Origin: Pseudomonadota bacterium
GTDB taxonomy: Bacteria; Bdellovibrionota; Bacteriovoracia; Bacteriovoracales; Bacteriovoracaceae
Assembly: GCA_027486525.1 (NCBI GenBank)
Contig: JAIXOY010000112.1
Location: 1-17,563 of the forward strand
DNA length: 17,563 bases
Direction of reading: 5' to 3'
The position numbers and the translations under genes were made by a program. This document shows, in pieces, positions 2,359 to 17,563 of the stretch. Within the stretch, counting starts at the first letter, position 1. Each line of letters opens with the position of its first letter. Below the pieces are notes generated by a model. That model made no database searches. It saw only the letters and a program-made list of their open reading frames with translations, and was not told where the DNA came from.

Positions 2359-3807
2359 CTATGGCAGGCAAACCAAGGGAGAATAGTCCCGAACGTGGCT
2401 CTCCATGCTCTCCCAATAACTGATGCCCGTGTCACGCGTATGACGGGCCAGGAGACCTTTCAGCATGGGGACTGTCTGCTCAATCCCGTACGCAATTTCC
2501 GTGGGAAAAGCCACCAGCCAACCTCGCCCTTCGATGGCGGTCTTCGGCATGGCGATGTCGAGACCAAGATCCAGGCGATTCACGAACGCCGCCACACTCT
2601 TCACCACCGTTGGCGCAAGCCTCACGGTGCCGATGGTCCAACCCCGATCACCGAACGTGCGGAAGTGCGGAAAATTATCGATCAAATCACCGAAGGTGAT
2701 CACGCCGGGATTGATGGTTTCGCCGGTAAAACCGGAGGCGTGAATCCCGACATCAGCGCCAGCACGATCGCGCAGCATGACGGCAAGGTGTTTCCCCCAG
2801 CAGCTGCGCTTCATCGCCGTGCGGCCGTCGACGTGGCCAGTGAGTGCGATCTGCGAGCGGCCAATCGGCTCATCCCAGGATCGACCGAAGTATGCTTCGC
2901 GGTCCTTCTTCGCTTGATCGACGATCACCTGAATTTTTGCGTTCACGGCCGTGGTCAGAGGAATCACATGCACCTGACTCGAAATCAGTTGATGCTTTTT
3001 CGTGACCGGATCGATGTCGACGATGACTTGACCCACCGCCATGGCATGGGCCCCGGCCTGCACCACTGGAATCCTCTGGCCTCTGCTATTTTTTGCGAGG
3101 ATCGGTTGGACTAGACGCTCGTGAGAATGAGCTCCCACCACAAGATCGATGCTGCGCGAGCGTTCCACGAGTTTCACATCCGTCTTGCTGCCAATGTGCG
3201 TGAGAACAATGAAGTAGTCCACCTTCGCATCTTTCGCCATCTGCTCGATGCGGCCGACTTCTCTCAGCGGATTCTTCACTTTCCCGGTATGGCGAATGGC
3301 GTACTGGTAGTGGAGCTCCGACGTCGTGAGGCCCGCGATGCCGATGCGCACTCCACCGATTGATTTCACCACCATGGATTTCACCAGACCGTGAGTCTCC
3401 GTGAGAAATTTATCATTCAGGTTGGCGGCCAGCACATCGGCTTTGATGTGGGCGCGCTTGAGTAGAGTGGCCAGTTCTTCGCCACCTTGCAAGAGATCGT
3501 GATTGCCGATGACCGTGACATCAACGCCGAGATCATCCAACAGCTTCAGCGCGGTGGCACCGTTCTCGGCGAAAAAGAATGAGGAACCTTCGCCGAAATC
3601 TCCCCCGTCGAGAAACAAGGTGGGAATGCCCTGCGTGGCCGCCTGCGCTTTCAGCCGATCGACCGTGGTCTTGAGTCGCGCGTAGCCGCCCTTTCCTTCG
3701 CCGCCTTCAAAATGGGAATGGAGATCATTGGAATGCAGGATCTGCACGCGAATCGCGTAGACCGGAAAAGCGACCAACAGCAGGCATGTGAGAAGGACCA
3801 AACGCAT
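2359..3807 (-). CDS. secreted bifunctional metallophosphatase / 5'-nucleotidase (UshA-like calcineurin-type phosphoesterase with C-terminal nucleotidase domain)
   Basis: 482 aa, ATG 3805-3807. N-terminal signal peptide MRLVLLTCLLLVAFPVYA. Metallophosphatase motifs ILHSNDLHSH, LDGGDF and VIGNHDLL. Length and C-terminal region fit the 5'-nucleotidase family. Confidence 0.88.
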   Translation of the reverse strand: MRLVLLTCLLLVAFPVYAIRVQILHSNDLHSHFEGGEGKGGYARLKTTVDRLKAQAATQGIPTLFLDGGDFGEGSSFFFAENGATALKLLDDLGVDVTVIGNHDLLQGGEELATLLKRAHIKADVLAANLNDKFLTETHGLVKSMVVKSIGGVRIGIAGLTTSELHYQYAIRHTGKVKNPLREVGRIEQMAKDAKVDYFIVLTHIGSKTDVKLVERSRSIDLVVGAHSHERLVQPILAKNSRGQRIPVVQAGAHAMAVGQVIVDIDPVTKKHQLISSQVHVIPLTTAVNAKIQVIVDQAKKDREAYFGRSWDEPIGRSQIALTGHVDGRTAMKRSCWGKHLAVMLRDRAGADVGIHASGFTGETINPGVITFGDLIDNFPHFRTFGDRGWTIGTVRLAPTVVKSVAAFVNRLDLGLDIAMPKTAIEGRGWLVAFPTEIAYGIEQTVPMLKGLLARHTRDTGISYWESMESHVRDYSPLVCLP

Positions 3808-6622: not shown

Positions 6623-7234
6623 TTAAACTGTCTCAAGAAGTTGCAAGCCGCGAACGTATTTCGAGAAGCGACCCAAACGCCAAGGAAGGCAGCGGATGAA
6701 CTCGTCACCGAGCTTGGCCGCTTCGAGCTTATATTTTATCTCCAACACGGCGACGTAGTCGAAGTCCTGCCGCCAAAGATTTCTTCCGGCCGGGGAAAAT
6801 TCTATTCGTGTATCGAGTGTTACTCGTAAACCCCAAGCAGGTGCGTGGTAGTACCGGCGTTCATACCGATTTTCCAGCACGGGATACATGAGACATTCAC
6901 CCAATAAAACACCGTGGCCTTCGCGCAAAGAAGCAATCGCTGCAGCAGGATCGTAGAAGCGCTTGTCCCCATGATCCCCTAACTTTCGTTTCTCCTCGAG
7001 TTGCTTCCAGGCTCCCCCATCGTAGGAGCGCAGACGCCACTTCACGCGCGCCTCGTGGCCCGCGGTGTGGGCATGAAAACAGGCGAGATCCGGCGAATCA
7101 AAATACGCGTTATGCACTCGACGTGCTGGATACGCCGTCACAAGGCCCATGGGATGAGCGAGGAGAATGTTCTCAATCTGCTGGAGATCGCCAGATCCGA
7201 GAGGAATCTTCTTTTCGAAACGCCAGTCACTCAT
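6623..7234 (-). CDS. VTC domain protein (polyphosphate-polymerase-type CYTH-like domain, PF09359-like), cytoplasmic
   Basis: 203 aa from ATG 7232-7234; I reject the longer 7303 start. Motifs match what I recall of bacterial VTC-domain proteins: RFEKKIPL (R.E.K), YFDSPD, ARVKWRLRSY, LEEKRK, GLRVTLDTRIEF, LEIKYK, and C-terminal RFSKYVRGL. The start overlaps the stop of the upstream gene (ATGA at 7231-7234). Confidence 0.8.
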   Translation of the reverse strand: MSDWRFEKKIPLGSGDLQQIENILLAHPMGLVTAYPARRVHNAYFDSPDLACFHAHTAGHEARVKWRLRSYDGGAWKQLEEKRKLGDHGDKRFYDPAAAIASLREGHGVLLGECLMYPVLENRYERRYYHAPAWGLRVTLDTRIEFSPAGRNLWRQDFDYVAVLEIKYKLEAAKLGDEFIRCLPWRLGRFSKYVRGLQLLETV

Positions 7235-7887
7235 AGCGACCACCCTTCTGGCCAGTGGCCCCAGATGCGCCACTCGTTTGTCTTGGGATTCCAAACCGCC
7301 CACGCCGTCTCGTCGAGAGGGGGCAGTTCTTTTTCATGCATCTGCGCAAGTGCTACGAGCAGAGGCAACCGCCGCGACTGCCGAGACACCTCGATGCCAG
7401 CTGCACCTTTCCGTGCGAGCGGCCCTTCTCCATTTTGCAGAGTCAGAGTGAAGGGATGAGCAAACAGTGCGTAGTCTCCGACACTCTTCCCATTCACGAT
7501 CAGCGCACCCTGCGCGAGCGGTGCTGGCGAAGGGGTACGCAGCAGGACAGCGGCCTCTAGGCTTTGCGTATCAACGAGGATCATTTCTCGCTGTTCAAAG
7601 CCCTGGTCCTCATCAACCTCTATCGCAACCGCTTTAAGCCCGGGCTGGCCCTGCGTCGGAAGTGTGCGCATTAAGACCCGCAGGCGGTTCCCTGCAAACT
7701 CGAGTTCACCCTTCACCTCTTGACTGCGCCACTGAGAGTTTGTCCGAAGCTTGATATCGTCAAAGAGCAAACGCTGAAGCGAACGATGCCCTAGAGAAAG
7801 CGCGAATGAGGGAGCCGACTTTCCTATCAAGAAAATTCCCAACCCCATCAGCACAACACAAAAGACCGCAGCGAAGAAAAAGCGCAT
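7231..7887 (-). CDS. hypothetical membrane-anchored protein (N-terminal TM/signal anchor, extracytoplasmic domain), unknown function
   Basis: 218 aa, ATG 7885-7887. MRFFFAAVFCVVLMGLGIFLIG is the hydrophobic anchor. No motif I recognise. The start overlaps the DUF4956 stop (TGATG) and the stop overlaps the VTC start (ATGA). Confidence 0.6.
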   Translation of the reverse strand: MRFFFAAVFCVVLMGLGIFLIGKSAPSFALSLGHRSLQRLLFDDIKLRTNSQWRSQEVKGELEFAGNRLRVLMRTLPTQGQPGLKAVAIEVDEDQGFEQREMILVDTQSLEAAVLLRTPSPAPLAQGALIVNGKSVGDYALFAHPFTLTLQNGEGPLARKGAAGIEVSRQSRRLPLLVALAQMHEKELPPLDETAWAVWNPKTNEWRIWGHWPEGWSL

Positions 7888-8555
7888 CAGGCCAAGTCTT
7901 GATATTCGGTGATGAGCATTTGAACTCCCGGCAACTTCTCTTTGAGTCCTTGGCGCATCTTCTCGAGATTTTCTGTCGAGGAGGTTTCTACCAAGAAGAC
8001 AGCTTCCCCCTCGGAGATGCGTTTGATTTTTACCCGCCGGGAATGGGTCGCAAGAACGGCCTCAAGTTCCGGCACGGAGAACTGAGCGAGCTTACTCAGA
8101 TGAACGTAGAGAGCTCCGGGACGACTTGCCCCGCCGCCACGCACTTTGAGGAGCGCATACACAAGAAGAATCACCACAAGACCGATGACGGTCACGGGCC
8201 GCTGATCGGCGCCCAGACCAAGGCCCACGGCGATGGAGAGAAACAGGAATGAAAGTTCTTCGGGGTCTTTGATCGCCGTTCGGAAACGGACGACGGAGAG
8301 CGCACCGACGAGACCCAGGGAAAGGGCGAGGGAGGACTTCACCACACTAATGACGAGCATGGTGGTCATGGTCAGAAGAAAAAAGTTTCCGGCGAAGAGT
8401 GTGCGATGAGACTGGCCTCGGCCCCAGCGGGAATAGAGCAGCGCCATCAGCCCGGCCAGCACGCCAGCGGTTCCCAAGTTGAGGACAAACTGCCCGACAT
8501 CGATCTGCGGGGCCTGGTTGGCGAGAAAATCTTCAAACGTGTTAACAGCACTCAT
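7887..8555 (-). CDS. DUF4956 domain-containing integral membrane protein
   Basis: 222 aa, ATG 8553-8555 with a GAGGAG Shine-Dalgarno 6 nt upstream. Contains the DUF4956 hallmark LSLGLVGALSVVRFRTAIKDPEELSFLFLSIAVGLGLG and several TM segments. Confidence 0.8.
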   Translation of the reverse strand: MSAVNTFEDFLANQAPQIDVGQFVLNLGTAGVLAGLMALLYSRWGRGQSHRTLFAGNFFLLTMTTMLVISVVKSSLALSLGLVGALSVVRFRTAIKDPEELSFLFLSIAVGLGLGADQRPVTVIGLVVILLVYALLKVRGGGASRPGALYVHLSKLAQFSVPELEAVLATHSRRVKIKRISEGEAVFLVETSSTENLEKMRQGLKEKLPGVQMLITEYQDLA

Positions 8556-8561
8556 GGATCA

Positions 8562-8567
8562 CTCCTC
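8562..8567 (-). promoter_or_regulatory. Shine-Dalgarno GAGGAG for the DUF4956 gene
   Basis: Plus-strand ctcctc, 6 nt upstream of ATG 8553-8555 on the minus strand. The only junction in the cluster with a spacer (24 nt) also has the strongest SD. Confidence 0.55.
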
Positions 8568-8579
8568 GTGATTGATAAA

Positions 8580-9470
8580 TCATGGCAAACGTAACCACTC
8601 CGCGGCGATCCAAAACAGACGCGCCCCTAAGAGAGTAAAAATAACGGATTTGAACTGGGGTGTGGCATTCGTGAAAGGGGCCTTCGACCACCGCACGCAC
8701 TGAATGAGGCCCCAGAAAAACAGGAAAGAGAAGATCACATAGAGGATCGCGGGCCCGTTGGAAAAGCGATCGAGTTGGTTTTCGTTCCACAGAATAGTCG
8801 CCACTCCTACGTAACCCCAAAAGAGCATGAGCGCGCCCACTCGGAGGGCATGAGTGGCACCCAGGAGACTCGAAAAATTTCGCGCCGTCGCATAAGTGTC
8901 ATGGGGCTTCAGCTGAAAGATCTGCGTGGCGGCATAGCTCCCGCCGACGGTGAGCGTAAACAGCCAGCCCATCATCCAAGTGCGCGCACTGGGCTCGAAG
9001 CCTGAGATGGTAGCCCCGAGGATGACTCCGATCACCCCACAGCCAGTCGCATCTAAGAAAAGATCGACGCCGCCAACTTCTTTACCGCGCCACTTGAGTC
9101 CGGGGACGCGGCCTGAATACGCATACGAGAAAAGCAAGGCGACAACCGCGCAGCCGAGGGGATAGGTGCCATAGAACGCCGCCGCCACACATCCCAGCAG
9201 CATGCAAGCAACACCGAAGTGGCCCAGCCACTTCGGACGCGGCGGGGGATTGTCTAAGAAGTTCAAGGGACCGGCATCGCGGTCGACGTGCGTATTGAGC
9301 GCGCAGGTGCCACCGAAGAGAAGAACGCTATAGATCAAGAAGAGCGCCAGCAGATCCGTCGGCCAGGCCGCTTTATTCGGATTGAGCGCATAGCCCGTTA
9401 ACACAAACACAAAGCTCGGGAGAAATGTCTTTGGACGCATGTGAATGAAATAAAATTTCAAATCTTTCAT
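8580..9470 (-). CDS. polytopic membrane protein, divergent UbiA-prenyltransferase-like
   Basis: 296 aa, ATG 9468-9470 overlapping the upstream stop (ATGA). 8-9 predicted TM segments. N-terminal HMRPKTFLPSFVFVLTGY (UbiA-like RP..T start), NTHVDRDAG in the first loop (degenerate NDxxDxxxD), and a later HDTYATARNFSSLLG (degenerate second motif). Family assignment is tentative; the catalytic Asp motifs look eroded. Confidence 0.5.
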   Translation of the reverse strand: MKDLKFYFIHMRPKTFLPSFVFVLTGYALNPNKAAWPTDLLALFLIYSVLLFGGTCALNTHVDRDAGPLNFLDNPPPRPKWLGHFGVACMLLGCVAAAFYGTYPLGCAVVALLFSYAYSGRVPGLKWRGKEVGGVDLFLDATGCGVIGVILGATISGFEPSARTWMMGWLFTLTVGGSYAATQIFQLKPHDTYATARNFSSLLGATHALRVGALMLFWGYVGVATILWNENQLDRFSNGPAILYVIFSFLFFWGLIQCVRWSKAPFTNATPQFKSVIFTLLGARLFWIAAEWLRLP

Positions 9471-10354
9471 CGTTTATCCTTCAAGAAATACTGGCGAGCA
9501 CGAAAGAATTTTGATTCCTGGCCAACCTTCATACCACGCTCACTCACCAACAACGACTCGAGTTTATTCAGAAGCAACGTTCCCATCTCGCGCGGGCGGT
9601 ACTTGTTTTCGATTTCCAGCTCTTTGATGAGGAATTCTTCTTTGCCACCACTGGCTTGAATGAAACGGGCCTCATCCCACGAACCTTCCATCAGCCAAAC
9701 CCATGATGGATTTTTACGAAATACGGCAGGCACCATCAGTTCGTTCTTCTCTGAGTCTCTCAGGAGCAAGAGCGGAGAAACGCGTTCGTTACGATCAATC
9801 AGAATGTGGTAGCGCTGACGATGAGAATAGCCAAGAACGACAGGCCCTAGGCCTTTGGTTTTTAACTGACGACGACGCAATTCTTGGAACGGAGCGAGGC
9901 TCGAACTTTCTTTGCGTGTGAGCCACTGGGAAAGAAGGGCACCATCGGCGGCACTCACTCCTCTCTGAGCGACGTACCTCTCAATGATGTCGACGATGCG
10001 CACACCTGCCACACTCTGCTCTTTGAGGTTGCGTTCCTCTTCTTCGATCCGTGCAGCTCCCGGTGCTTCCATCTCCGATTTAAGCTGGATGACATAGGCC
10101 GGTGGCTGGTTCCCTTTGCGCACTCTTCGGATGCGTAATCCGAGTCCGGCCTGAGTCAGAACACCTTCAGGAGAATCGAAGTAGAGGTCTTCGGCGAGGT
10201 AAACATCGTGAGGCCAAAAACGAAAATCCCCCAAGAGAAAAGTTTCCTGAGGCAGAGGCTGATCCGCGGGGACCACATACTTACGTTGCTCTTCTACCCG
10301 ATTGGTAGCCGCCAGCACATTGAAACTCAGGAGGAGAAGAAGGATTCTTACCAT
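9467..10354 (-). CDS. secreted VTC/CYTH-like domain protein (signal peptide + divergent polyphosphate-polymerase-type tunnel domain)
   Basis: 295 aa from ATG 10352-10354; I reject the longer 10387 start, which would overlap the upstream gene by 40 nt. Signal peptide MVRILLLLLSFNVLAA/TN. Then RVEEQRKYVV, LYFDSPEG, GLGLRIRRV and YVIQLKSE parallel the RFEKK / YFDSPD / WRLRSY / LEEKRK of the VTC protein at 6623-7234. C-terminal SKFFRARQYF parallels RFSKYVRG. Confidence 0.6.
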   Translation of the reverse strand: MVRILLLLLSFNVLAATNRVEEQRKYVVPADQPLPQETFLLGDFRFWPHDVYLAEDLYFDSPEGVLTQAGLGLRIRRVRKGNQPPAYVIQLKSEMEAPGAARIEEEERNLKEQSVAGVRIVDIIERYVAQRGVSAADGALLSQWLTRKESSSLAPFQELRRRQLKTKGLGPVVLGYSHRQRYHILIDRNERVSPLLLLRDSEKNELMVPAVFRKNPSWVWLMEGSWDEARFIQASGGKEEFLIKELEIENKYRPREMGTLLLNKLESLLVSERGMKVGQESKFFRARQYFLKDKR

Positions 10355-11856
10355 CCGTACCCCCGGAACCGGCCACGCGTGTGCCACAGTCCTGCGGGAT
10401 AGAGTGTGAGATCCGGCTCGCGCACGAGCTCTCCGTTCTTCACGACGTCACCGATGTTGAGTTGGCGATTAATCTGCCACGTGTGAGGGTCTGAAACCTG
10501 AAAGGCTCTGAGAATTTGTCGACGACGCTCGGCGAGTTTGTGGAAATACAGTTCGCGCACTTCTGCGGGCCATCCGGAGTGCGAGAGAATTTCTCGCAGA
10601 TCATCCGGACCTAAACGAGCAATCTGCTTGGCCATCCACGCAAGATCGCTCCACGTCGCCTGGCGCCAGGCTTCCGGGAGATGGTTCATGCGAGCGAGGA
10701 AACGAAGCTCTTTTCCATCGTCCTCTACCAGATCCCAACCCAACTCATTCACCAGGCCACCCTTGAGGTCGCGCGGGAACTTCTCAATGCGAACTCCCAG
10801 CGAAACACCCAAGTCACTATAACTGGCCTTCATACCTTCAGCTGTGAGAGTGAGCAACGTGTTGTCGGTCTTCGTGTCCCAGTTGCCGATCCACATCTCC
10901 GCAAGGAGAGCTCCGCGCACAGAACGCCTCGATTTATTTTGTGCGAGGTCCGGCATGAAAGGCCCGAGGCGCGTCTCGGAACTCGGCCTTGGCTCCAACG
11001 CGAGTCCTGTGAAGGTGAGATAGGTCTCTCCCTCCCTTCCACGCAGCAAGGGCTCAATGGCAATCATCTCATCCGTCACGGTGCTGACCTGCTGGATGAA
11101 GGGACTCAGATTTATTTTGTAGCTGTTGTAGATAAAATTCACGAGCTGCTGAACGGTGCGCTTCTGCTTAGCTTGGCGACCCAACAGCAAACGGAGCTCG
11201 CCGGTTCCGCGATGAAAAGGAAAATCCACGTTAAAACCGAGAGAGGCAAAGATCCTCGAGGCCACGGGGTCACTATGAATCTCATCACCCCACTTGATCA
11301 GCCACCGTTCGCCATTACGAAGATCATCGGCGTGAACCTTCGCGACACTGCCCTTGCCTTCTAACTTATCAAGTCGCAGCCAAGAAAAGTCCGGATCCAC
11401 GCCAGCTGCTTTCCACTGGCGCTCAAAGGCCTCAGACAACGGAGCAACTGGGCTTTTCCAAAACGCATCGCTCTCGGCAGGCCGGCCATCATCAGGTGCG
11501 CGATTGAACTTTAAAAGATACGGAGAAAGATCGTGGGTCAACCCCATCTTGAGAATGTCGAGCAGGCCCACGCCGGCTTCCACACGATGGCGATCAATGA
11601 AGGAGTGGTAGATCAGATCGAGATTGTCCCACGCCACGGGATTGGGAAAATTGCCAGCATCGAAGGCCCGTTCTTGTTGCTCGCAGGTATCGCGAACAAA
11701 CGAGAGCATCACTGGTTTGCGCTCTTGCGTGAGCTTGCGACCTTCGGCTTCCTTCACATCCGTGTTCGTGAGCACTTCACAACGTGACCGCGATTCTTCC
11801 AGCGTGAGCGCTTGGGCGCTCAAGCTGAGAAAGAATAATGGCCACAGTCGCTTCAT
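10348..11856 (-). CDS. secreted protein with protein-kinase-like (PKL/Hanks-like) catalytic core; not CotH-like
   Basis: 502 aa, ATG 11854-11856. Signal peptide MKRLWPLFFLSLSAQA. Gly-rich loop LEGKGSVAKV (aa ~165-175), Lys in WLIKW (K188), catalytic loop WIGNWDTKTDNTLL (D327-x-K329-x-x-N332, the HRDLKPEN spacing), and DLG at 348-350. The kinase core maps to about nt 10800-11370. Confidence 0.65.
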   Translation of the reverse strand: MKRLWPLFFLSLSAQALTLEESRSRCEVLTNTDVKEAEGRKLTQERKPVMLSFVRDTCEQQERAFDAGNFPNPVAWDNLDLIYHSFIDRHRVEAGVGLLDILKMGLTHDLSPYLLKFNRAPDDGRPAESDAFWKSPVAPLSEAFERQWKAAGVDPDFSWLRLDKLEGKGSVAKVHADDLRNGERWLIKWGDEIHSDPVASRIFASLGFNVDFPFHRGTGELRLLLGRQAKQKRTVQQLVNFIYNSYKINLSPFIQQVSTVTDEMIAIEPLLRGREGETYLTFTGLALEPRPSSETRLGPFMPDLAQNKSRRSVRGALLAEMWIGNWDTKTDNTLLTLTAEGMKASYSDLGVSLGVRIEKFPRDLKGGLVNELGWDLVEDDGKELRFLARMNHLPEAWRQATWSDLAWMAKQIARLGPDDLREILSHSGWPAEVRELYFHKLAERRRQILRAFQVSDPHTWQINRQLNIGDVVKNGELVREPDLTLYPAGLWHTRGRFRGYGW

Positions 11857-12365
11857 TACGCACGGGCCCCACGGTAGTCCATGATCTCGCGGTTACCGAT
11901 GTAGCTGTACCCGATGAAGATCAGCACGAAGGCCGCATGGATGGGCCACCCGAGTTCTGCGAAACCATCGTACTGACGAAAGAAGCCCCAGGCGAAGGTC
12001 ACCGCCGTACCACCGTGGATGCAAATCCACATGATCATGTGAATGATGGTTTCTCTTTCCGTGCACCGTGGAAGGTGCCAGTGGATCTCGTCCATGAATT
12101 CGTGGAGGGTCCGTGTGACCCAGCAGCCCAAGAAGAGAAACAATGCTTGTCCAGGCCACCAGGTCATCAGCAAGAGTGAGAGCATCAGTCCGTAGCTGGT
12201 GTAAAGAATCATCCGGTGAGTGCGCAGCTCTCCGTCCGTGATGTCCTTTTTCCAAATCGCTAGATGCGTTTTGTGATCGAGGTACCAGAAGATGCCGAAG
12301 AAGAATCCGAAGAAGAGCATCCCGTAAGCGAAATGCTGTGGAGGAATTGCATCAAGCCATGACAT
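11856..12365 (-). CDS. hypothetical polytopic membrane protein with conserved His clusters
   Basis: 169 aa, ATG 12363-12365 overlapping the upstream UbiA gene by 14 nt. Stop TAA overlaps the next start (TAATG). ~5 TM segments with His motifs LDHKTH, LHEFMDEIHWH and IIHMIMWICIHGG. No family I can name. Confidence 0.55.
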   Translation of the reverse strand: MSWLDAIPPQHFAYGMLFFGFFFGIFWYLDHKTHLAIWKKDITDGELRTHRMILYTSYGLMLSLLLMTWWPGQALFLFLGCWVTRTLHEFMDEIHWHLPRCTERETIIHMIMWICIHGGTAVTFAWGFFRQYDGFAELGWPIHAAFVLIFIGYSYIGNREIMDYRGARA

Positions 12366-13161
12366 AAAACACCATCCTCGAGATAAAGATTAGCCCGCAC
12401 GTTGCGAGATTCATGTATTGAGTTGCGTAGTGGCCCGGCTCGCCCCAGCGAAGCCATTCGAGGTTCGCGGCACGCCAGACGAGAACCGCGATCCACGCGG
12501 TTCCCCACGGCACGGGGCAAAGAAGCAAAAGCAGACCGCTCAGGAGATTCAGCGTGTGAAGAAGAGCGTAGGTCGTGCGCTCACCGAACACGAGCGGCAG
12601 CGTGCGAGTCCCGCTCAACCGATCCTCTTCGAGATCATCCAAATCCCGCAGGACACTTCCGGCCATCACCTGCAGCGCCACGAAGCCTGCGACGATGTTG
12701 ATGTAGGGAGATGAGGTGTCGCCGGCACCCAAGTAGACGAGCATCGCCCAGCCCACACCGATCCAGGCACTCTTAATTCCCGTCAGAGATTTAAGACGAA
12801 AAGTTCCCGTCGCCGTGGCGAAGGGATAGGAGTAGGACAAACCTAAAAAGAGAATCGTCAGCGAACACACAAGCGTCAGCGGGCCCGGACGCAACAGGGA
12901 GAGAACGAGGCCCGAAATGAGAAGGGGGAGGAGCTTGAGTCCGGCGCGTGACTTCAGGGCATCCCACGGATGTTGCTCATCGGTGAGTGAGTCCATGCCA
13001 TAGACAAAACCCACCAGAGAAAAAGTGATCCACACCACCGACCAACTGGCGGCGAGCTCAACGCTCACGAGACTAAATCCCGTCAGCACGATGGCCACGG
13101 CCGCGGCCACGAGGATCCAGATGGACTTACGTCTCCAGAGGAGAAAATGTGATGCGAGCAT
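12352..13161 (-). CDS. UbiA superfamily prenyltransferase (MenA-like aromatic prenyltransferase fold)
   Basis: 269 aa, first gene of the minus-strand cluster. The strong second Asp-rich motif RDLDDLEEDRLSGTRTLPLVFG matches the MenA/UbiA NDxxDxxxD...G.KTL.V..G signature. 8-9 TM segments. Confidence 0.75.
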   Translation of the reverse strand: MLASHFLLWRRKSIWILVAAAVAIVLTGFSLVSVELAASWSVVWITFSLVGFVYGMDSLTDEQHPWDALKSRAGLKLLPLLISGLVLSLLRPGPLTLVCSLTILFLGLSYSYPFATATGTFRLKSLTGIKSAWIGVGWAMLVYLGAGDTSSPYINIVAGFVALQVMAGSVLRDLDDLEEDRLSGTRTLPLVFGERTTYALLHTLNLLSGLLLLLCPVPWGTAWIAVLVWRAANLEWLRWGEPGHYATQYMNLATCGLIFISRMVFYVMA

Positions 13162-13306: not shown

Positions 13307-14698
13307 ATGTTTTTGAAGCACTTCACTCTTGCGGCCCTCGTGGCGATCGTCTCGGGCCAGGCTTTTGCCTTGAACGAAGGTCTGCGCTACCACCTCAAAT
13401 CGCTGGAGCACGGCAAGGCCGCGGCCTATCGCTTTGATGGGACCTTACGCCTCACCGAAGACGGCTTCTTCCAGCAAAAACTCAGTCACGATGATCCCGG
13501 CTCGGCTTCCTTCGGTCAGCGCTACTTCATCGACTCAAAGTACGCCACTGCGGGCGAAACAGCTCCCGTGTTCTACATCATCTGCGGCGAGTGGAACTGC
13601 GACGGCACCGGCTCTTACTCTTCTGTTGAACGTCTCGCGAAAGAAGTCGGCGCGCACTTGGTGGCGCTCGAGCACCGCTACTACGGCGAAAGTTTGCCGT
13701 TCCGGAAGTTGACCACCGAACGTCTCTCGCACTTGAATCTTGATGCCGCGATCACGGACCTGGCCGTGTTCCAAAAACACGCCATGGAGACCATGAATCT
13801 CAAAGGCAAGTGGGTCGCTTTCGGTGGATCGTACGCAGGAACTCTTGCGGCGTTCTACCGTCTCAAGCATCCGGAACTCGTGACCGGCGCCCTCGCCTCT
13901 TCAGCACCTGTCTTGGTGAAAGCTGAGTTCAACGAATACGACGCACACGTGGCATCGGTGATCAACAAGAACACCTGCGGCGACATGGTTCGCGAAGCGG
14001 TCGCGGGCATCGAAGCTCGCATGGCGACCCGCGAAGGTACCCTCGCGGTGAAGGCACTCTTCAACTCAAGCGATGTGGTGAACGACGATGATTTCTTGTA
14101 CGTCGTTGCCGACATGCTCGCGGCCGCCGTCCAATACGGAAGACATACCAAGTTCTGCAACGATCTCGCTGCAAATCCAGATCGCGTCGCAGGTTACGCT
14201 CGCGCCGGCATCAACGTCTTAAGCTCCATGGGGACAACGCCGATTGAAATTTCCATGCAGGCCGCGGAAGCGAAAGACATCACACCGGCGAGCTACTTCC
14301 GTCAGTGGATGTGGCAGAGCTGTCTTGAGTTCGGTTGGTTTCAAGTCGCCAACGGCACAGGTGTCGATACGTCACGCTCAAGCCGCATCGATCTTCCGTA
14401 CCACGACCGCGTCTGTGAACGGCTCTACGGCCAAGGCACAACCGCTGATGGTTCCTTGAATGCCACTTGGTATGCTCCGCTCTTTAGCCCAAGCACGACC
14501 AACATCATCTTCACCAACGGCTCGAACGATCCGTGGTTGCGTCTCTCCGTGATCCCGGGAGTGCAGGCACCGAATCTTGATCTCTTGATGATCGATGGAG
14601 CTGCTCACTGTAATGACTTGAACGCTCTTTCTGCACTTCCGACAGTGCAAGCGGCGCAGGTTCGTTTCGGCGAAATTATTAAGGGCTGGTTGCTGTAG
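13307..14698 (+). CDS. secreted peptidase S28 family serine carboxypeptidase (Pro-X carboxypeptidase / DPP-II-like)
   Basis: 463 aa. Signal peptide MFLKHFTLAALVAIVSGQAFA. Catalytic Ser motif GGSYAGTLAAFYRLKHPEL (the GGSY.G.L.A..R.KYP of S28). Mid-region and C-terminal His region are consistent with S28. Stop TAG 14696-14698. Confidence 0.85.
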   Translation: MFLKHFTLAALVAIVSGQAFALNEGLRYHLKSLEHGKAAAYRFDGTLRLTEDGFFQQKLSHDDPGSASFGQRYFIDSKYATAGETAPVFYIICGEWNCDGTGSYSSVERLAKEVGAHLVALEHRYYGESLPFRKLTTERLSHLNLDAAITDLAVFQKHAMETMNLKGKWVAFGGSYAGTLAAFYRLKHPELVTGALASSAPVLVKAEFNEYDAHVASVINKNTCGDMVREAVAGIEARMATREGTLAVKALFNSSDVVNDDDFLYVVADMLAAAVQYGRHTKFCNDLAANPDRVAGYARAGINVLSSMGTTPIEISMQAAEAKDITPASYFRQWMWQSCLEFGWFQVANGTGVDTSRSSRIDLPYHDRVCERLYGQGTTADGSLNATWYAPLFSPSTTNIIFTNGSNDPWLRLSVIPGVQAPNLDLLMIDGAAHCNDLNALSALPTVQAAQVRFGEIIKGWLL

Positions 14699-16232
14699 GA
14701 AGAGTTCCGAGCCAGCTCTCCGGCTGGTCGCAATAAGCCGGACGTTGCGCACACGCATTGTCGCCGAGATCGCTGATCGAGTAGTTCACGCTGAAGCGCG
14801 CACACTCATTGTATTTTTTTACGGCATCCGGCGTGCTCTCGATCTGGCAGGGCCCGTTGATGATCCGCGCGAAGTGCGCCGGATGCAGCATGCTTCGTCC
14901 CATGGGTTTGTTACGGTAGTGCACCGTCGTGCCTTCGACGCGAAACTGCCCCTTCGGCACGCGGAAATCCACGGGCGTCATTCGCTGTGTGTGGAACGGG
15001 CACGCGTAGACCTTCCGTTGCGGCGAACTGATCGCCACAGCTTCCGGGCGCAGGATGTCGAGGTAATGCCGGCACGCGAGGTCCCCTTCCGGACACGAAC
15101 AGCTGAGCGTCCTGCGGCTCACACTTGTCGTCGTGCCGTTCGGCTCAAGCACCGGTTTCAAAAAGGACTGAACCTCGATTTTGTCGACAGTGTTCACGAG
15201 CAGCGTGTTGAACGGTGCATCGACAGACGTTGGTAACGGCACGAACCCGTTGTCCTTCTCGACGCAGTAGATGTCCTTGAGAGTCAGCGGCTGCGGAGGC
15301 CCCGCGACGACGAGTGGAGGCGCCCCCGCGATCGCCGGGATGACCGGTACCGTGGGAATCACCACGGGCGAGACCTCCGGATAACGCAGCGGCAGTCCCA
15401 CGCTCAACGTCGAGATGTTGCCGATCTGGAAGTACTTCTTGCGCATGAGCATCTCGCGCACAACCGGGTTCGGGCTCCGGAGGTGTGCCGTGAAGTCCGA
15501 TTCCACGGGGATCTCGCAGCGGCCGACCTCGCCGACGGAGTCGTCGAAGGCGATATGCATGCCATCGCCCATCATCGAATCGCCGGGGCCCATCGCCCGG
15601 CACTCGCTGGCGTTCACGTCTTCGCCGTTGTCTTTGTACTCGTCACACAGACCCGCGAAGTGCAGCAGCTCGTGGACGATGGTGGCGCAGTTGAAGTCCG
15701 AAGAATACTTCTGCGCATCCCCCCGTTCTCCCGGCTTGACGATCGTGATCTCGATCTCCGGTGGCTTCACGGAACCCATGGCCTGCGCCTGAGTAGGTGA
15801 CACAGCAATGAGGTTCAGCTGCTCTCCCCCGGGTCCTCGCAGGCCAGGCCTCGCAGCGTCGAGGCAACTGCGCACTCGATCCAGCATCGCTGCCGGTGTC
15901 ACCGTCGCGTCGGGGTTAGCGGTGAACTTGAGGTTGAACACCATCTCGTACTGCTTTTCACCGAGGTACTTCAGAGTGCCCTTGTGATCGGTCGGTAACT
16001 TGTAGTTGTCCGATCGGATGTTGCTATGGCTCACGTTTTCTTGCCGATGGGCCGACCGCACCATGCTCCCGCGGGTCACGTCGAAGACGCGAGCGTCGCC
16101 CGGCTTCGTGAGCGGATTACAGCGGTTGATCTCGTCGATGTCGGCGATCCAGTCGGTGGGGCTGATGGAATAGTTCGTCGAGCACAGCGGCTGCGCGTGG
16201 GCGAGCCCGAGGAAGAAGAGGAGAAATGTCAT
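14679..16232 (-). CDS. secreted Cys-rich zinc metalloprotease, snapalysin (M7)-like HExxHxxGxxD active site (paralog 1)
   Basis: 517 aa from ATG 16230-16232, which overlaps the upstream paralog stop (ATGA); I reject the 16388 start. Signal peptide MTFLLFFLGLAHA/QP. FNCATIVHELLHFAGLCDEY (nt ~15637-15678) is followed by a DSMMGDG Met-turn. I count 19 Cys. The C-terminal domain is shared with paralog 2 (LHPAHF). The 3' end overlaps the S28 gene by 20 nt (convergent). Confidence 0.7.
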   Translation of the reverse strand: MTFLLFFLGLAHAQPLCSTNYSISPTDWIADIDEINRCNPLTKPGDARVFDVTRGSMVRSAHRQENVSHSNIRSDNYKLPTDHKGTLKYLGEKQYEMVFNLKFTANPDATVTPAAMLDRVRSCLDAARPGLRGPGGEQLNLIAVSPTQAQAMGSVKPPEIEITIVKPGERGDAQKYSSDFNCATIVHELLHFAGLCDEYKDNGEDVNASECRAMGPGDSMMGDGMHIAFDDSVGEVGRCEIPVESDFTAHLRSPNPVVREMLMRKKYFQIGNISTLSVGLPLRYPEVSPVVIPTVPVIPAIAGAPPLVVAGPPQPLTLKDIYCVEKDNGFVPLPTSVDAPFNTLLVNTVDKIEVQSFLKPVLEPNGTTTSVSRRTLSCSCPEGDLACRHYLDILRPEAVAISSPQRKVYACPFHTQRMTPVDFRVPKGQFRVEGTTVHYRNKPMGRSMLHPAHFARIINGPCQIESTPDAVKKYNECARFSVNYSISDLGDNACAQRPAYCDQPESWLGTLPTATSP

Positions 16233-17563
16233 GGCCGCACCGCCGGTGCGCCGCCGAGGAACTTCACTGGATCGCGGCACTCCGCTGGCACGTTCGAGCA
16301 GTCGACGGCCGTGTCGGCGGGCTGCGAGTGGCGGTAGGCGAACTGCGCGCAGCGGTCGTAGAGCGTGGTGCGATCGATCGCACGGCACGAACCGCGCAAC
16401 ACGCGCATGAAGTGCGCGGGATGGAGCAAGCTACGGTTGAGGCGCGGGGGATTGCGGAACTCGACGAAGCCGGCGCTCACGCGCTCGTCCCGCACGGTTC
16501 CCTGGTTCATGCCCACGTCGCTGGCGCCGGCGTCCTGCGAACTCGTGGGACAGCGGAAGCGGCGGTTGCTCGCTTGGTAGCCTTCGTTCATCTTCGCGCG
16601 CACGCCGGTGATACTCGCCTGGCACTGCGAGTTGCCCGGGGGGCACTTGCAGATCAAGCGGTACTGCGACGGCAGTGTTTGGTAGCGTGTGACGTTGCGG
16701 CCAGCGAAGTCCATCTCGAAGCCGCGAGGTATATCCACGAAGCGCGCTCCGTAGGTCTGCAGCAAAGGCCTCTGGGCCGTCGCCGCAAACGTCGTGACCG
16801 TGCACCAATTTTTCTCAAACGCGGACTTGTCCGGCAGCGTCTTGTAGATGTCGTTGGCGTCCGGCGACATCTCCGCGGCGAGGTGGCCCGCCGGAGCGTT
16901 CAGCCACTTCGAGCCGGGGTTCAGGACGCAGCGCTTGGCGAGGCCGACGGCGTCGTCGTAGGTGCCCTGCATGTCCACGCTCATGATCGAATCTTCGTGC
17001 ACGATCACGCGACAGGCCGCCGCGTTCTGGATCTCCGTGGGATTGCCCTCGGGGTACTCGTCGCAGAGGCCAGCGTGGTGGAGGAATTCGTGGATGACCG
17101 TGGCGCACGAGAAATCCATCGAGAAATTGTTCGCGTTCCCGCGGCCACTCGTCTTGACGTTGATCGCAATGAGCGGGGGCTTCGGCGACTCACCGCTGTC
17201 ACCCCGGAGCGTGAGCCGCATCTGGTGGCCGTCGGGGCCGGTCATGGCGGGCGATGCTTGCGCAAAGCACTGCTCGACCCGTGTGCGCATTTCGGCGACC
17301 TGCGCCTCGGTGGTGTCGACGGCAGTGAACTTTGCGTTGAATTCGACGTTCCAGGATTTATCACCTGTGCGCCGAAGGACGAACTGACTGTTGTTGGGGA
17401 TCTTGTTCTCCGTGTGGCCAAGCTGGTCGTGGAGCACGGCCTCGCCGACGTCGGGGATCGCGCACGCCGAGATGTCGCTAAGACTTTGTAGACTCGAACT
17501 GATGCCCGAGTTGAGCAGGCCCTGCAACGGGAGTTCTGCGTCGAGACACGTCTCGCAGTCCGC
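16229..17563 (-). CDS. secreted Cys-rich snapalysin-like zinc metalloprotease (paralog 2), 5' end beyond window
   Basis: The frame stays open to nt 17563. The codon at 17525-17527 that the ORF track prints as M is TTG, not a credible start. FSCATVIHEFLHHAGLCDEY (nt ~17055-17096). Aligns with paralog 1 throughout (NVEFNAKFTA vs MVFNLKFTA; SLLHPAHFMRV vs SMLHPAHFARI). Very high GC3. Confidence 0.7.
   Translation of the reverse strand, partial: ADCETCLDAELPLQGLLNSGISSSLQSLSDISACAIPDVGEAVLHDQLGHTENKIPNNSQFVLRRTGDKSWNVEFNAKFTAVDTTEAQVAEMRTRVEQCFAQASPAMTGPDGHQMRLTLRGDSGESPKPPLIAINVKTSGRGNANNFSMDFSCATVIHEFLHHAGLCDEYPEGNPTEIQNAAACRVIVHEDSIMSVDMQGTYDDAVGLAKRCVLNPGSKWLNAPAGHLAAEMSPDANDIYKTLPDKSAFEKNWCTVTTFAATAQRPLLQTYGARFVDIPRGFEMDFAGRNVTRYQTLPSQYRLICKCPPGNSQCQASITGVRAKMNEGYQASNRRFRCPTSSQDAGASDVGMNQGTVRDERVSAGFVEFRNPPRLNRSLLHPAHFMRVLRGSCRAIDRTTLYDRCAQFAYRHSQPADTAVDCSNVPAECRDPVKFLGGAPAVRP

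Follow-up and report, generated by a model that had tools for sequence, protein, structure and literature searches.

A new family of predicted exported kinase-fold proteins in a conserved membrane-enzyme operon of Bdellovibrionota

The energy source for phosphorylation outside the Gram-negative cytoplasm is an open problem, and few exported bacterial kinases are known to us, the main examples being CotH and CtkA. The 17,563-nt contig JAIXOY010000112.1 (assembly GCA_027486525.1; Bacteriovoracaceae, Bdellovibrionota), analysed over its full length and called the window below, raises the question of whether another such kinase exists. One of its genes encodes a 502-aa protein, here named KIN, which a sequence-only reading had interpreted as a secreted protein with a eukaryotic-like protein-kinase core, standing in the place of CotH in a VTC/DUF4956 system. 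Is KIN a kinase by its fold and its active site, is it exported, does it belong to CotH or to any other described family, and what might it phosphorylate?

Fold, catalytic residues and export of KIN

The AlphaFold2 (AF2) model of KIN, computed from a 20-sequence alignment (pLDDT 86.6, pTM 0.89), begins with an N-terminal helical domain (helices 19-30, 48-66, 73-94 and 98-114) and continues with strands 159-164, 173-178 and 184-188, helix 192-205, more strands and a helical C-terminal lobe (C-lobe). Helix 311-323 leads into the segment D327 to N332, which strand 333-338 then follows, and D348 comes just after strand 341-346, an arrangement that matches the catalytic loop and DFG motif of kinases. 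The model has the bilobal form of the protein-kinase-like (PKL) fold, with a beta-rich N-terminal lobe (N-lobe), a helix in the alpha-C position and a helical C-lobe, together with a catalytic Asp (D327), an Asn five residues later (N332) and a metal-binding Asp (D348).

Two independent structure comparisons of this model returned only kinases as their top matches. In the first, the scores ran from CtkA (11.5), actin-fragmin kinase (11.2), PI4K type II alpha (10.7), a HipA_C protein (10.5) and Fam20 (10.2) to HipA (9.6), Fam20C (9.1-9.3), CotH (9.0) and MavQ (7.9). Foldseek returned the same families; mTOR, PI3K and MAP kinases came after them, with lower probabilities. The model and the comparisons bear out the bilobal kinase fold on which the sequence-only reading depended, including its canonical catalytic positions. 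The term "eukaryotic-like" was nevertheless an overstatement, because the nearest structures are atypical kinases, with canonical eukaryotic protein kinases matching the model only at low Foldseek probability, and because the GxGxxG loop is not conserved. As judged from the model, KIN is a member of the PKL-fold superfamily whose shape is closest to the HipA/CtkA kinases, actin-fragmin kinase, PI4K type II and Fam20.

We determined the conservation of the kinase motifs at two evolutionary distances. A search of 5.8 billion proteins yielded 20 full-length relatives of KIN (42-90% identity), all of them unnamed or called "hypothetical protein", the named ones coming from Bacteriovoracaceae or Bdellovibrionales genomes; no Pfam domain was found in these 20 orthologues. 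More distant conservation was counted in 124 representatives aligned to the KIN profile, with gapped sequences excluded for each column. Translation confirmed the residue numbers of the four motifs that had been taken as kinase signatures: LEGKGSVAKV, WLIKW (185-189), NWDTKTDN and DLG. On the N-lobe side, G169, S170, K173, W185, K188, W189, G190 and E192 are invariant in the 20 orthologues, as are W326, D327, K329, N332, D348 and G350 on the catalytic side and, further, F360, P361, R362, D363, K365, D404 and W407.

The same residues persist in the distant family members. K173 is kept in 110/114, K188 in 121/121, E192 in 122/122, D327 in 113/118, N332 in 116/118, D348 in 110/117 and G350 in 112/117 sequences, while position 329 carries Lys or Arg in 115/118 (108 Lys and 7 Arg). 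Each of K173, K188, E192, D327, N332, D348, G350, D404 and W407 is at least 94% conserved. A set of 167 representatives of the wider family likewise keeps K173, K188, E192, D327, Lys or Arg at 329, N332, D348 and G350 with few or no exceptions. The motifs of the sequence-only reading are therefore conserved in homologues, with one correction: G167 varies, so that LEGKGSVAKV cannot be read as a GxGxxG-like loop, and the conserved element is instead [GA]-[ST]-x-x-K (G169, S170 and K173).

On the AF2 model, the invariant K188 ends the third N-lobe strand and the invariant E192 begins helix 192-205 in the alpha-C position. K173, K188 and E192, all invariant or nearly so, are the candidates for the beta-3 Lys and the alpha-C Glu. 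The catalytic loop follows the pattern D327-x-K329-x-x-N332 and, as D327-T-K329-T-D-N332, has the Lys two residues past the Asp that marks an HRDLKxxN-type loop; NWDTKTDN ends at N332, and D348 of the DLG motif lies 16 residues farther on. Placed on the model, the ATP-phosphate-binding, catalytic-base and metal-binding residues of kinases are all present in KIN at their expected positions. The FPRDLK motif is invariant among the orthologues and mostly missing in the distant members, and it sits inside a low-confidence model loop (352-367), at the place where kinases have an activation or substrate loop. FPRDLK and the C-terminal tail GRFRGYGW may be partner- or substrate-binding elements that are specific to the operon-linked subgroup.

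KIN should be an exported protein. Its N-terminus, MKRLWPLFFLSLSAQA followed by LT, has the basic n-region, hydrophobic core and A-x-A site of a Sec-type signal peptide, judged by inspection and a simple heuristic, with predicted cleavage after A14-Q15-A16. Residues 1-15 have a pLDDT below 50 in the AF2 model, and an equivalent N-terminus is found in 20/20 orthologues. Such a signal peptide should direct KIN to the periplasm or beyond. Across the family, a signal-like hydrophobic N-terminal stretch is present in 141/149 full-length members, compared to 9% of random internal control segments, and the KIN family as a whole consequently looks exported. KIN has exactly two cysteines, C26 and C58, which are both invariant in the orthologues and presumably form a disulfide within the N-terminal domain. 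The cleavable signal peptide and the extracytoplasmic kinase domain proposed by the sequence-only reading agree with the predicted signal, the two invariant cysteines and the signal-like N-termini throughout the family.

The family is large and has no sequence link to known kinases. When 1.84 billion cluster representatives (clusters at 50% identity) were searched with a profile, 838 proteins matched at E<=1e-3, of which 492 also reached E<=1e-10; the majority of the matches were 600-1300 aa long. Pfam and NCBIfam scans gave KIN no family at any threshold tried, and found no kinase family in a total of 24 distant members. At E<=10, no Pfam kinase family, including Pkinase (PF00069), was matched in the 20 orthologues and 14 distant members, and the Fam20 (PF06702) and PI3/PI4-kinase (PF00454) profiles were not matched by KIN. 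Comparing the sequences of solved structures to the single KIN protein and to the orthologue profile gave nothing meaningful and no significant similarity to kinases. With a profile of distant members, designed armadillo repeats appeared as an artefact, in which weak per-repeat scores (each E>=16) were summed over identical repeats. We found no description of the KIN family in literature on the family, the operon, DUF4956, VTC and CotH. Without a significant sequence match to known families, KIN is not assignable to any of the structurally similar groups. Among the exported atypical kinases, a known class, it represents a new family and fits none of the families compared.

The distant members of the Riflebacteria type (600-1300 aa) occur alone or without consistent neighbours. 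In one further locus (L027, 2118-10595), a distant 671-aa member adjoins a purple-acid-phosphatase-like protein, near PhoD-like and PepSY+DUF4956 proteins. It is a second, independent link of the family to DUF4956 and extracytoplasmic phosphate enzymes, and a single case.

Gene neighbourhood and comparison with CotH and other kinases

KIN is the third of eight tightly packed minus-strand genes (6623-13161). It is preceded by genes for a UbiA-family prenyltransferase and a 169-aa membrane protein, and followed by genes for an exported CYTH/VTC-like protein, a second UbiA-family prenyltransferase, a DUF4956 membrane protein, a 218-aa protein and a VTC-domain protein (Table 1). The stops and starts of these genes overlap or almost touch, and the stop of the 169-aa gene overlaps the start of KIN (TAATG). 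Besides the window, nine other Bdellovibrionota contigs with enough flank have the same gene order, in some of them with an MMPL transporter inserted before DUF4956. DUF4956 and VTC lie downstream in the same operon in 9/9 of these contigs, set apart from KIN by two or three genes.

The Bacteroidota loci (L016, L023 and L024-L026, the last three from marine metagenomes) carry a kinase-fold gene followed by a CYTH-like gene, with a homologue of the 169-aa protein and UbiA nearby, and no VTC or DUF4956 in the stretches examined. The CYTH-like gene directly follows KIN in every locus compared. VTC and DUF4956 are linked to KIN less tightly and less widely than are UbiA, the 169-aa protein and the tunnel enzyme. 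The company that KIN keeps in Bdellovibrionota fits the proposal that it fills a "CotH slot" in a VTC/DUF4956 system, but this proposal does not extend to Bacteroidota, and KIN is not adjacent to the two genes.

The Bacteroidota clusters (5945-16704 in L016; 3996-10650 in L023) also hold other enzymes. A tryptophan-halogenase-type flavoenzyme (flavin halogenase/monooxygenase type) is found in 4/5 loci, an alpha/beta hydrolase in L016 and L024-L026, and ketoacyl synthase and FabA genes in L016. The cluster looks like a specialised lipid or natural-product cluster.

The comparison with CotH has a published basis. In streptococci, clostridia and bifidobacteria, a conserved trio of genes beside pel encodes a secreted CotH, a VTC polyphosphate-polymerase protein and a membrane protein that is annotated as DUF4956 (10.1101/768473, preprint). 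In Streptococcus intermedius, mutants of the secreted CotH gene and of the membrane-protein gene alter Pel-dependent aggregation (PMC12345266). Because the operon of the window combines VTC, DUF4956 and an exported kinase fold, the analogy to the CotH set is fair for Bdellovibrionota, where KIN is accompanied by VTC and DUF4956 as the secreted CotH is in Streptococcus, Clostridium and Bifidobacterium; an extracytoplasmic location, predicted for KIN, is a second likeness. Searching for a canonical VTC-DUF4956-CotH locus on plasmids, we obtained no match with the VTC protein and only sporulation-type CotH genes with the CotH probe.

One explanation for this likeness is that KIN is a CotH orthologue that has diverged past recognition and shares its ancestry and role with secreted CotH, rather than forming a separate family. 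Wherever a Bdellovibrionota contig has enough flank, KIN shares its operon with VTC and DUF4956; this, the published association (10.1101/768473; PMC12345266) and the similar spacing from catalytic Asp to Asn to metal-binding Asp (5 and 18 residues in CotH, 5 and 16 in KIN) are consistent with a diverged CotH. However, the CotH profile PF08757 is not matched at E<=10 by the 20 orthologues or 14 distant members, though a CotH sequence used only as a probe scores E=4.6e-100 on it as a positive control. Profile-profile alignment with hhalign gave probabilities of 0.2% and, with a 158-sequence KIN-family profile, 0.4%, which is a weak test since the CotH profile is thin (three sequences, from CotH genes in annotated records).

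The motifs also differ. The invariant columns of CotH include D228 and N233 (NFDGFxHN), D251 and PWDYD, in place of which KIN has NWDTKTDN and SDLG, and CotH has no lysine two residues past its catalytic Asp. Five other kinase families are structurally nearer to KIN than CotH (B. cereus CotH, 5jda) is, KIN lies two or three genes away from DUF4956 and VTC, and its relatives in Bacteroidota, outside Bdellovibrionota, lack both of these genes nearby. The observation in the sequence-only reading that KIN lacks the CotH motif is thus upheld: KIN is not a recognisable CotH. We consider a diverged CotH orthologue unlikely, and treat KIN as a separate family. The templates for CotH and for E. coli HipA were thin, so that a null result from hhalign is no proof of unrelatedness. 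An independent recruitment of a kinase-like fold, which the sequence-only reading proposed, is one candidate origin of KIN.

The HipA-type kinases are the closest in shape. CtkA (Helicobacter pylori JHP0940) is a secreted bacterial kinase, and it shares with HipA and KIN a small, atypical N-lobe (3akj, 7wcf, 4pu3 and 5k98). HipA also has a Ser-containing phosphate loop that ends in Lys (SVAGAQEK in E. coli HipA, GSVAK in KIN), and its spacing is similar: K181 to D309, D309 to N314 and N314 to D332 are 128, 5 and 18 residues apart, compared to 139, 5 and 16 residues in KIN. In the best hhalign alignment, which is not significant, D327 is in register with HipA D309 and N332 with N314; the probability against E. 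coli HipA is 0.1% with a thin template, and KIN has no Pfam match to HipA_C (PF07804). Unlike HipA, KIN has a D-x-K-x-x-N loop instead of D-x-H-x-K-N, and where HipA has an antitoxin partner of the HipB or HipS type, KIN is flanked by genes for UbiA, a membrane protein and a CYTH-like protein. An extra N-terminal helical bundle, a Sec signal and a place in a biosynthetic or envelope operon set KIN apart from both HipA and CtkA.

Other families resemble KIN in location or in possible substrate. The Fam20 kinases (Fam20C and the xylosylkinase Fam20B; 5xom, 5yh0, 5yh3 and 4kqa) bear signal peptides and work outside the cytosol, and their members phosphorylate proteins or sugars, showing that the fold class is not confined to protein substrates. 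They are eukaryotic and use ATP in the Golgi lumen; they differ from KIN in having no sequence similarity to it and a different N-terminal domain. Actin-fragmin kinase (1cja), type II PI4K (4pla and 4hnd) and MavQ (7m7a) include lipid kinases, which would suit the lipid-related operon of KIN, and we take the IGNWDTKTDN loop of KIN to resemble the GDRHxxN loop of lipid kinases. However, these are cytosolic eukaryotic or effector proteins, KIN has no PF00454 match, and it has a Lys where their loops have other residues. Finally, COQ8/UbiB is a kinase-fold protein genetically tied to UbiA-type prenyltransferases, flavin monooxygenases and prenylated lipids, a functional analogy only (PMC13418538). 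COQ8/UbiB is not among the top structural matches of KIN, lies on the opposite side of the membrane and has no sequence similarity to it.

Proposed function and alternatives

We think it rather probable that KIN is an active extracytoplasmic phosphotransferase acting on an envelope molecule, to which its fold, its catalytic residues, its predicted export and its conserved operon all point. The membrane enzymes of the operon would make or anchor the envelope molecule that KIN phosphorylates, with a prenylated lipid or glycolipid as the first guess and an envelope protein as the second. The neighbouring exported tunnel enzyme, which is of an unusual kind to our knowledge, would take part in this pathway by handling a tri- or polyphosphate group. 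More speculatively, a phosphoanhydride (polyphosphate) could be supplied across the inner membrane of Bdellovibrionota by DUF4956 and the VTC protein of the cytoplasm, a part possibly played by the partners of CotH in Gram-positive CotH-VTC-DUF4956 triads. Such a donor would address the lack of periplasmic ATP. In its boldest form, which is in our estimate quite unlikely, this proposal would make the KIN family and CotH, as found in the Gram-positive triads, unrelated or nearly unrelated kinase folds recruited to one and the same job, the phosphorylation of envelope molecules outside the cytoplasm, driven by polyphosphate that VTC makes in the cytoplasm and that passes through DUF4956, while the tunnel enzyme prepares or trims the donor.

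Several points weigh against an active phosphotransferase. ATP is not known to be present in the periplasm of Gram-negative bacteria, which makes the donor for KIN a genuine difficulty. Polyphosphate would be an unprecedented donor for the KIN fold, and it would not be a general one, because neither VTC nor DUF4956 is seen in the Bacteroidota loci examined. The substrate is a guess from the neighbouring genes, and distant members (Riflebacteria, 600-1300 aa) stand alone or in unrelated contexts. The active-site layout is a prediction, and either K173 or K188 may be the lysine that pairs with E192. Finally, kinase folds with intact motifs sometimes do other chemistry, such as AMPylation by SelO or the ATPase activity of COQ8/UbiB.

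KIN could accordingly be a kinase fold without phosphotransfer to a substrate, whether an AMPylase or nucleotidyl transferase, a COQ8/UbiB-like ATPase or lipid chaperone, or a pseudokinase scaffold. The lack of periplasmic ATP speaks against a classical kinase, and the two UbiA prenyltransferases of the operon, together with the flavin monooxygenase/halogenase-type enzyme in Bacteroidota, recall the UbiA/UbiH/UbiB grouping of quinone synthesis. There is also a precedent in COQ8, which is reported to be an ATPase that delivers lipid intermediates (PMC13418538). However, the full Asp/Lys/Asn/Asp set for phosphotransfer is strongly conserved, and UbiB/COQ8 works on the cytoplasmic or matrix side, whereas KIN is predicted to be exported. 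If KIN were a pseudokinase, some lineages should have lost catalytic residues, and such losses are few. We regard a function of this kind as improbable.

A different alternative is that KIN is a secreted effector kinase aimed at prey or host, like H. pylori CtkA, and that predatory Bdellovibrionota deliver it to their prey, a place where ATP is available. Its orthologues come from genomes of Bacteriovoracia and Bdellovibrionaceae, a predatory group, and KIN has a signal peptide. Nevertheless, only a Sec signal is visible, and no signal for secretion past the periplasm was found. An effector gene would not usually be translationally coupled, as KIN is, to genes for integral membrane and envelope enzymes in one operon, and the same module is found in Bacteroidota, including marine metagenome contigs, that are not known predators. 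An effector role is very unlikely. That the kinase motifs arose by chance in an unrelated periplasmic protein, as the failure of every sequence-based method to find a kinase family might suggest, has a negligible probability, being already contradicted by two independent structure comparisons with only kinases at the top, by the conservation of the motif residues in distant homologues and by the placement of the motifs on the expected secondary-structure elements.

The phosphotransferase that we favour would matter in several ways. The KIN family comprises at least 838 clusters, nearly all of them signal-bearing and with the full catalytic set, and is absent from Pfam and NCBIfam. Its fixed pairing with an exported tunnel enzyme, joined in Bdellovibrionota by VTC and DUF4956, makes the choice between ATP and polyphosphate directly testable. 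If polyphosphate were the donor, KIN would be part of a polyphosphate-driven periplasmic kinase system; this would give a function to uncharacterised VTC/DUF4956 gene sets and shed light on the unexplained CotH-VTC-DUF4956 sets beside Pel polysaccharide genes in streptococci. If KIN were merely an ATP-dependent kinase for one envelope substrate, it would still be a new family in the kinase-like superfamily.

Operon genes and other genes of the window

The coordinates of KIN and its elements, of the other operon genes and of the remaining genes discussed are listed in Table 1. The interval and length that the sequence-only reading had given for the KIN gene are exact and the open reading frame (ORF) is real, starting with ATG at 11856 and ending with a stop codon at 10348-10350 in the ORF list and the translation; the strand, which had been left unstated, is minus.

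Table 1. Positions of KIN, its sequence elements and the neighbouring genes in the window
Feature	Coordinates	Strand	Basis
KIN, 502-aa predicted exported kinase-fold protein (gene 3)	10348..11856	-	ORF list, translation, 20 orthologues (42-90% identity)
KIN predicted signal peptide, residues 1-16 (MKRLWPLFFLSLSAQA)	11809..11856	-	Sequence, low pLDDT, equivalent N-termini in homologues
KIN N-terminal helical domain, residues 17-115, with C26 and C58	11512..11808	-	AF2, invariant columns, cysteine count
KIN predicted atypical protein-kinase-like domain, residues ~155-451	10504..11394	-	
Phosphate-loop-like LEGKGSVAKV, residues 165-174	11335..11364	-	Between model strands 159-164 and 173-178; alignments
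WLIKWGDE, residues 185-192	11281..11304	-	Translation, AF2, alignments
Putative catalytic loop NWDTKTDN, residues 325-332	10861..10884	-	After helix 311-323, before strand 333-338
DLG, residues 348-350, metal-binding DFG position	10807..10815	-	Directly after strand 341-346
FPRDLK, residues 360-365	10762..10779	-	Orthologue alignment, AF2
C-terminal tail GRFRGYGW, residues 495-502	10351..10374	-	Invariant in orthologues, low model confidence
Gene 1, UbiA-family prenyltransferase, 269 aa	12352..13161	-	PF01040 E=1.5e-12, NCBIfam prenyltransferase models; position kept in all loci
Gene 2, 169-aa five-helix membrane protein	11856..12365	-	
Gene 4, predicted exported CYTH/VTC-like triphosphate-tunnel protein	9467..10354	-	Pfam CYTH E=9e-5
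Gene 5, second UbiA-family prenyltransferase, 296 aa	8580..9470	-	PF01040 E=2.2e-6, below gathering score
Gene 6, DUF4956 membrane protein, 222 aa	7887..8555	-	PF16316 E=8.4e-15
Gene 7, 218-aa protein with N-terminal membrane anchor or signal, no family	7231..7887	-	
Gene 8, VTC-domain protein, polyphosphate-polymerase-type tunnel fold, no signal peptide	6623..7234	-	PF09359 E=2.1e-18
Signal-peptide-bearing metallophosphoesterase	2359..3807	-	PF00149
Long SPFH/band-7 protein, 675 aa	4553..6580	+	
Secreted S28-family serine carboxypeptidase	13307..14698	+	PF05577 E=2.7e-72
First putative metalloprotease paralogue	14679..16388	-	
Second putative metalloprotease paralogue	16229..17527	-	

The 169-aa protein is the best-conserved product of the operon, with 58-93% identity across loci. 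Its invariant residues are D30, H31, H34, D44, E46, H50, H88, E89, D92, E93, H97, E103, E105 and H109, and its AF2 model (pLDDT 92) consists of five long helices. It had no family match and no informative fold match, and it may be a membrane metalloenzyme.

For the CYTH-like protein, the orthologue in L016 reaches E=4.2e-7 on the Pfam CYTH profile, which is above the cut-off. The listed ORF extends to a GTG at 10387, and the likelier start is an internal ATG at 10354 (MVRILLLLLSFNVLAA); translation probably begins at this ATG, which gives a predicted signal peptide and an overlap with the end of KIN. The charged residues of a tunnel-type enzyme (ExQxK, RxR, KxE, RxExE, RxR and ExExE) are conserved in 17 orthologues, the first signature being ExQxK and not ExExK.

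PF01040 is present in the L001 and L002 orthologues of the second UbiA protein, and the 218-aa protein has orthologues in L001, L003, L006 and L007. The listed ORF of the VTC protein reaches 7303 and is likely over-extended. A start at 7234 (MSDWRFEKK) is likelier: the product then has 203 aa, as its L001 orthologue does, and its gene overlaps the 218-aa gene by 4 nt. Matches to promoters and terminators in the operon were no commoner than in shuffled sequence.

Downstream of the operon lie the metallophosphoesterase and the SPFH/band-7 protein. Neither was detected in the related loci compared, although the metallophosphoesterase was not used as a query, and both are therefore probably unrelated to the operon. 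On its other side, the two genes nearest the contig end encode paralogues with 38% identity over 177 aa (E=9e-34). The paralogues have a common HExxH...GLCDEY motif and many cysteines, with no Pfam match. A signal-like segment (MTFLLFFLGLAHA) is present in the first of them at least, and the pair may represent an undescribed family of secreted zinc metalloproteases. Their listed ORFs overlap by 160 nt, so that the first start is probably over-extended. The G+C content of this stretch (14679-17527) is 62.8%, compared to 56.6% for the window. Between these paralogues and the operon, the S28-family carboxypeptidase is encoded divergently to the operon. The S28 family is mostly eukaryotic, and the position of this gene is conserved in L001/L004 and L005.

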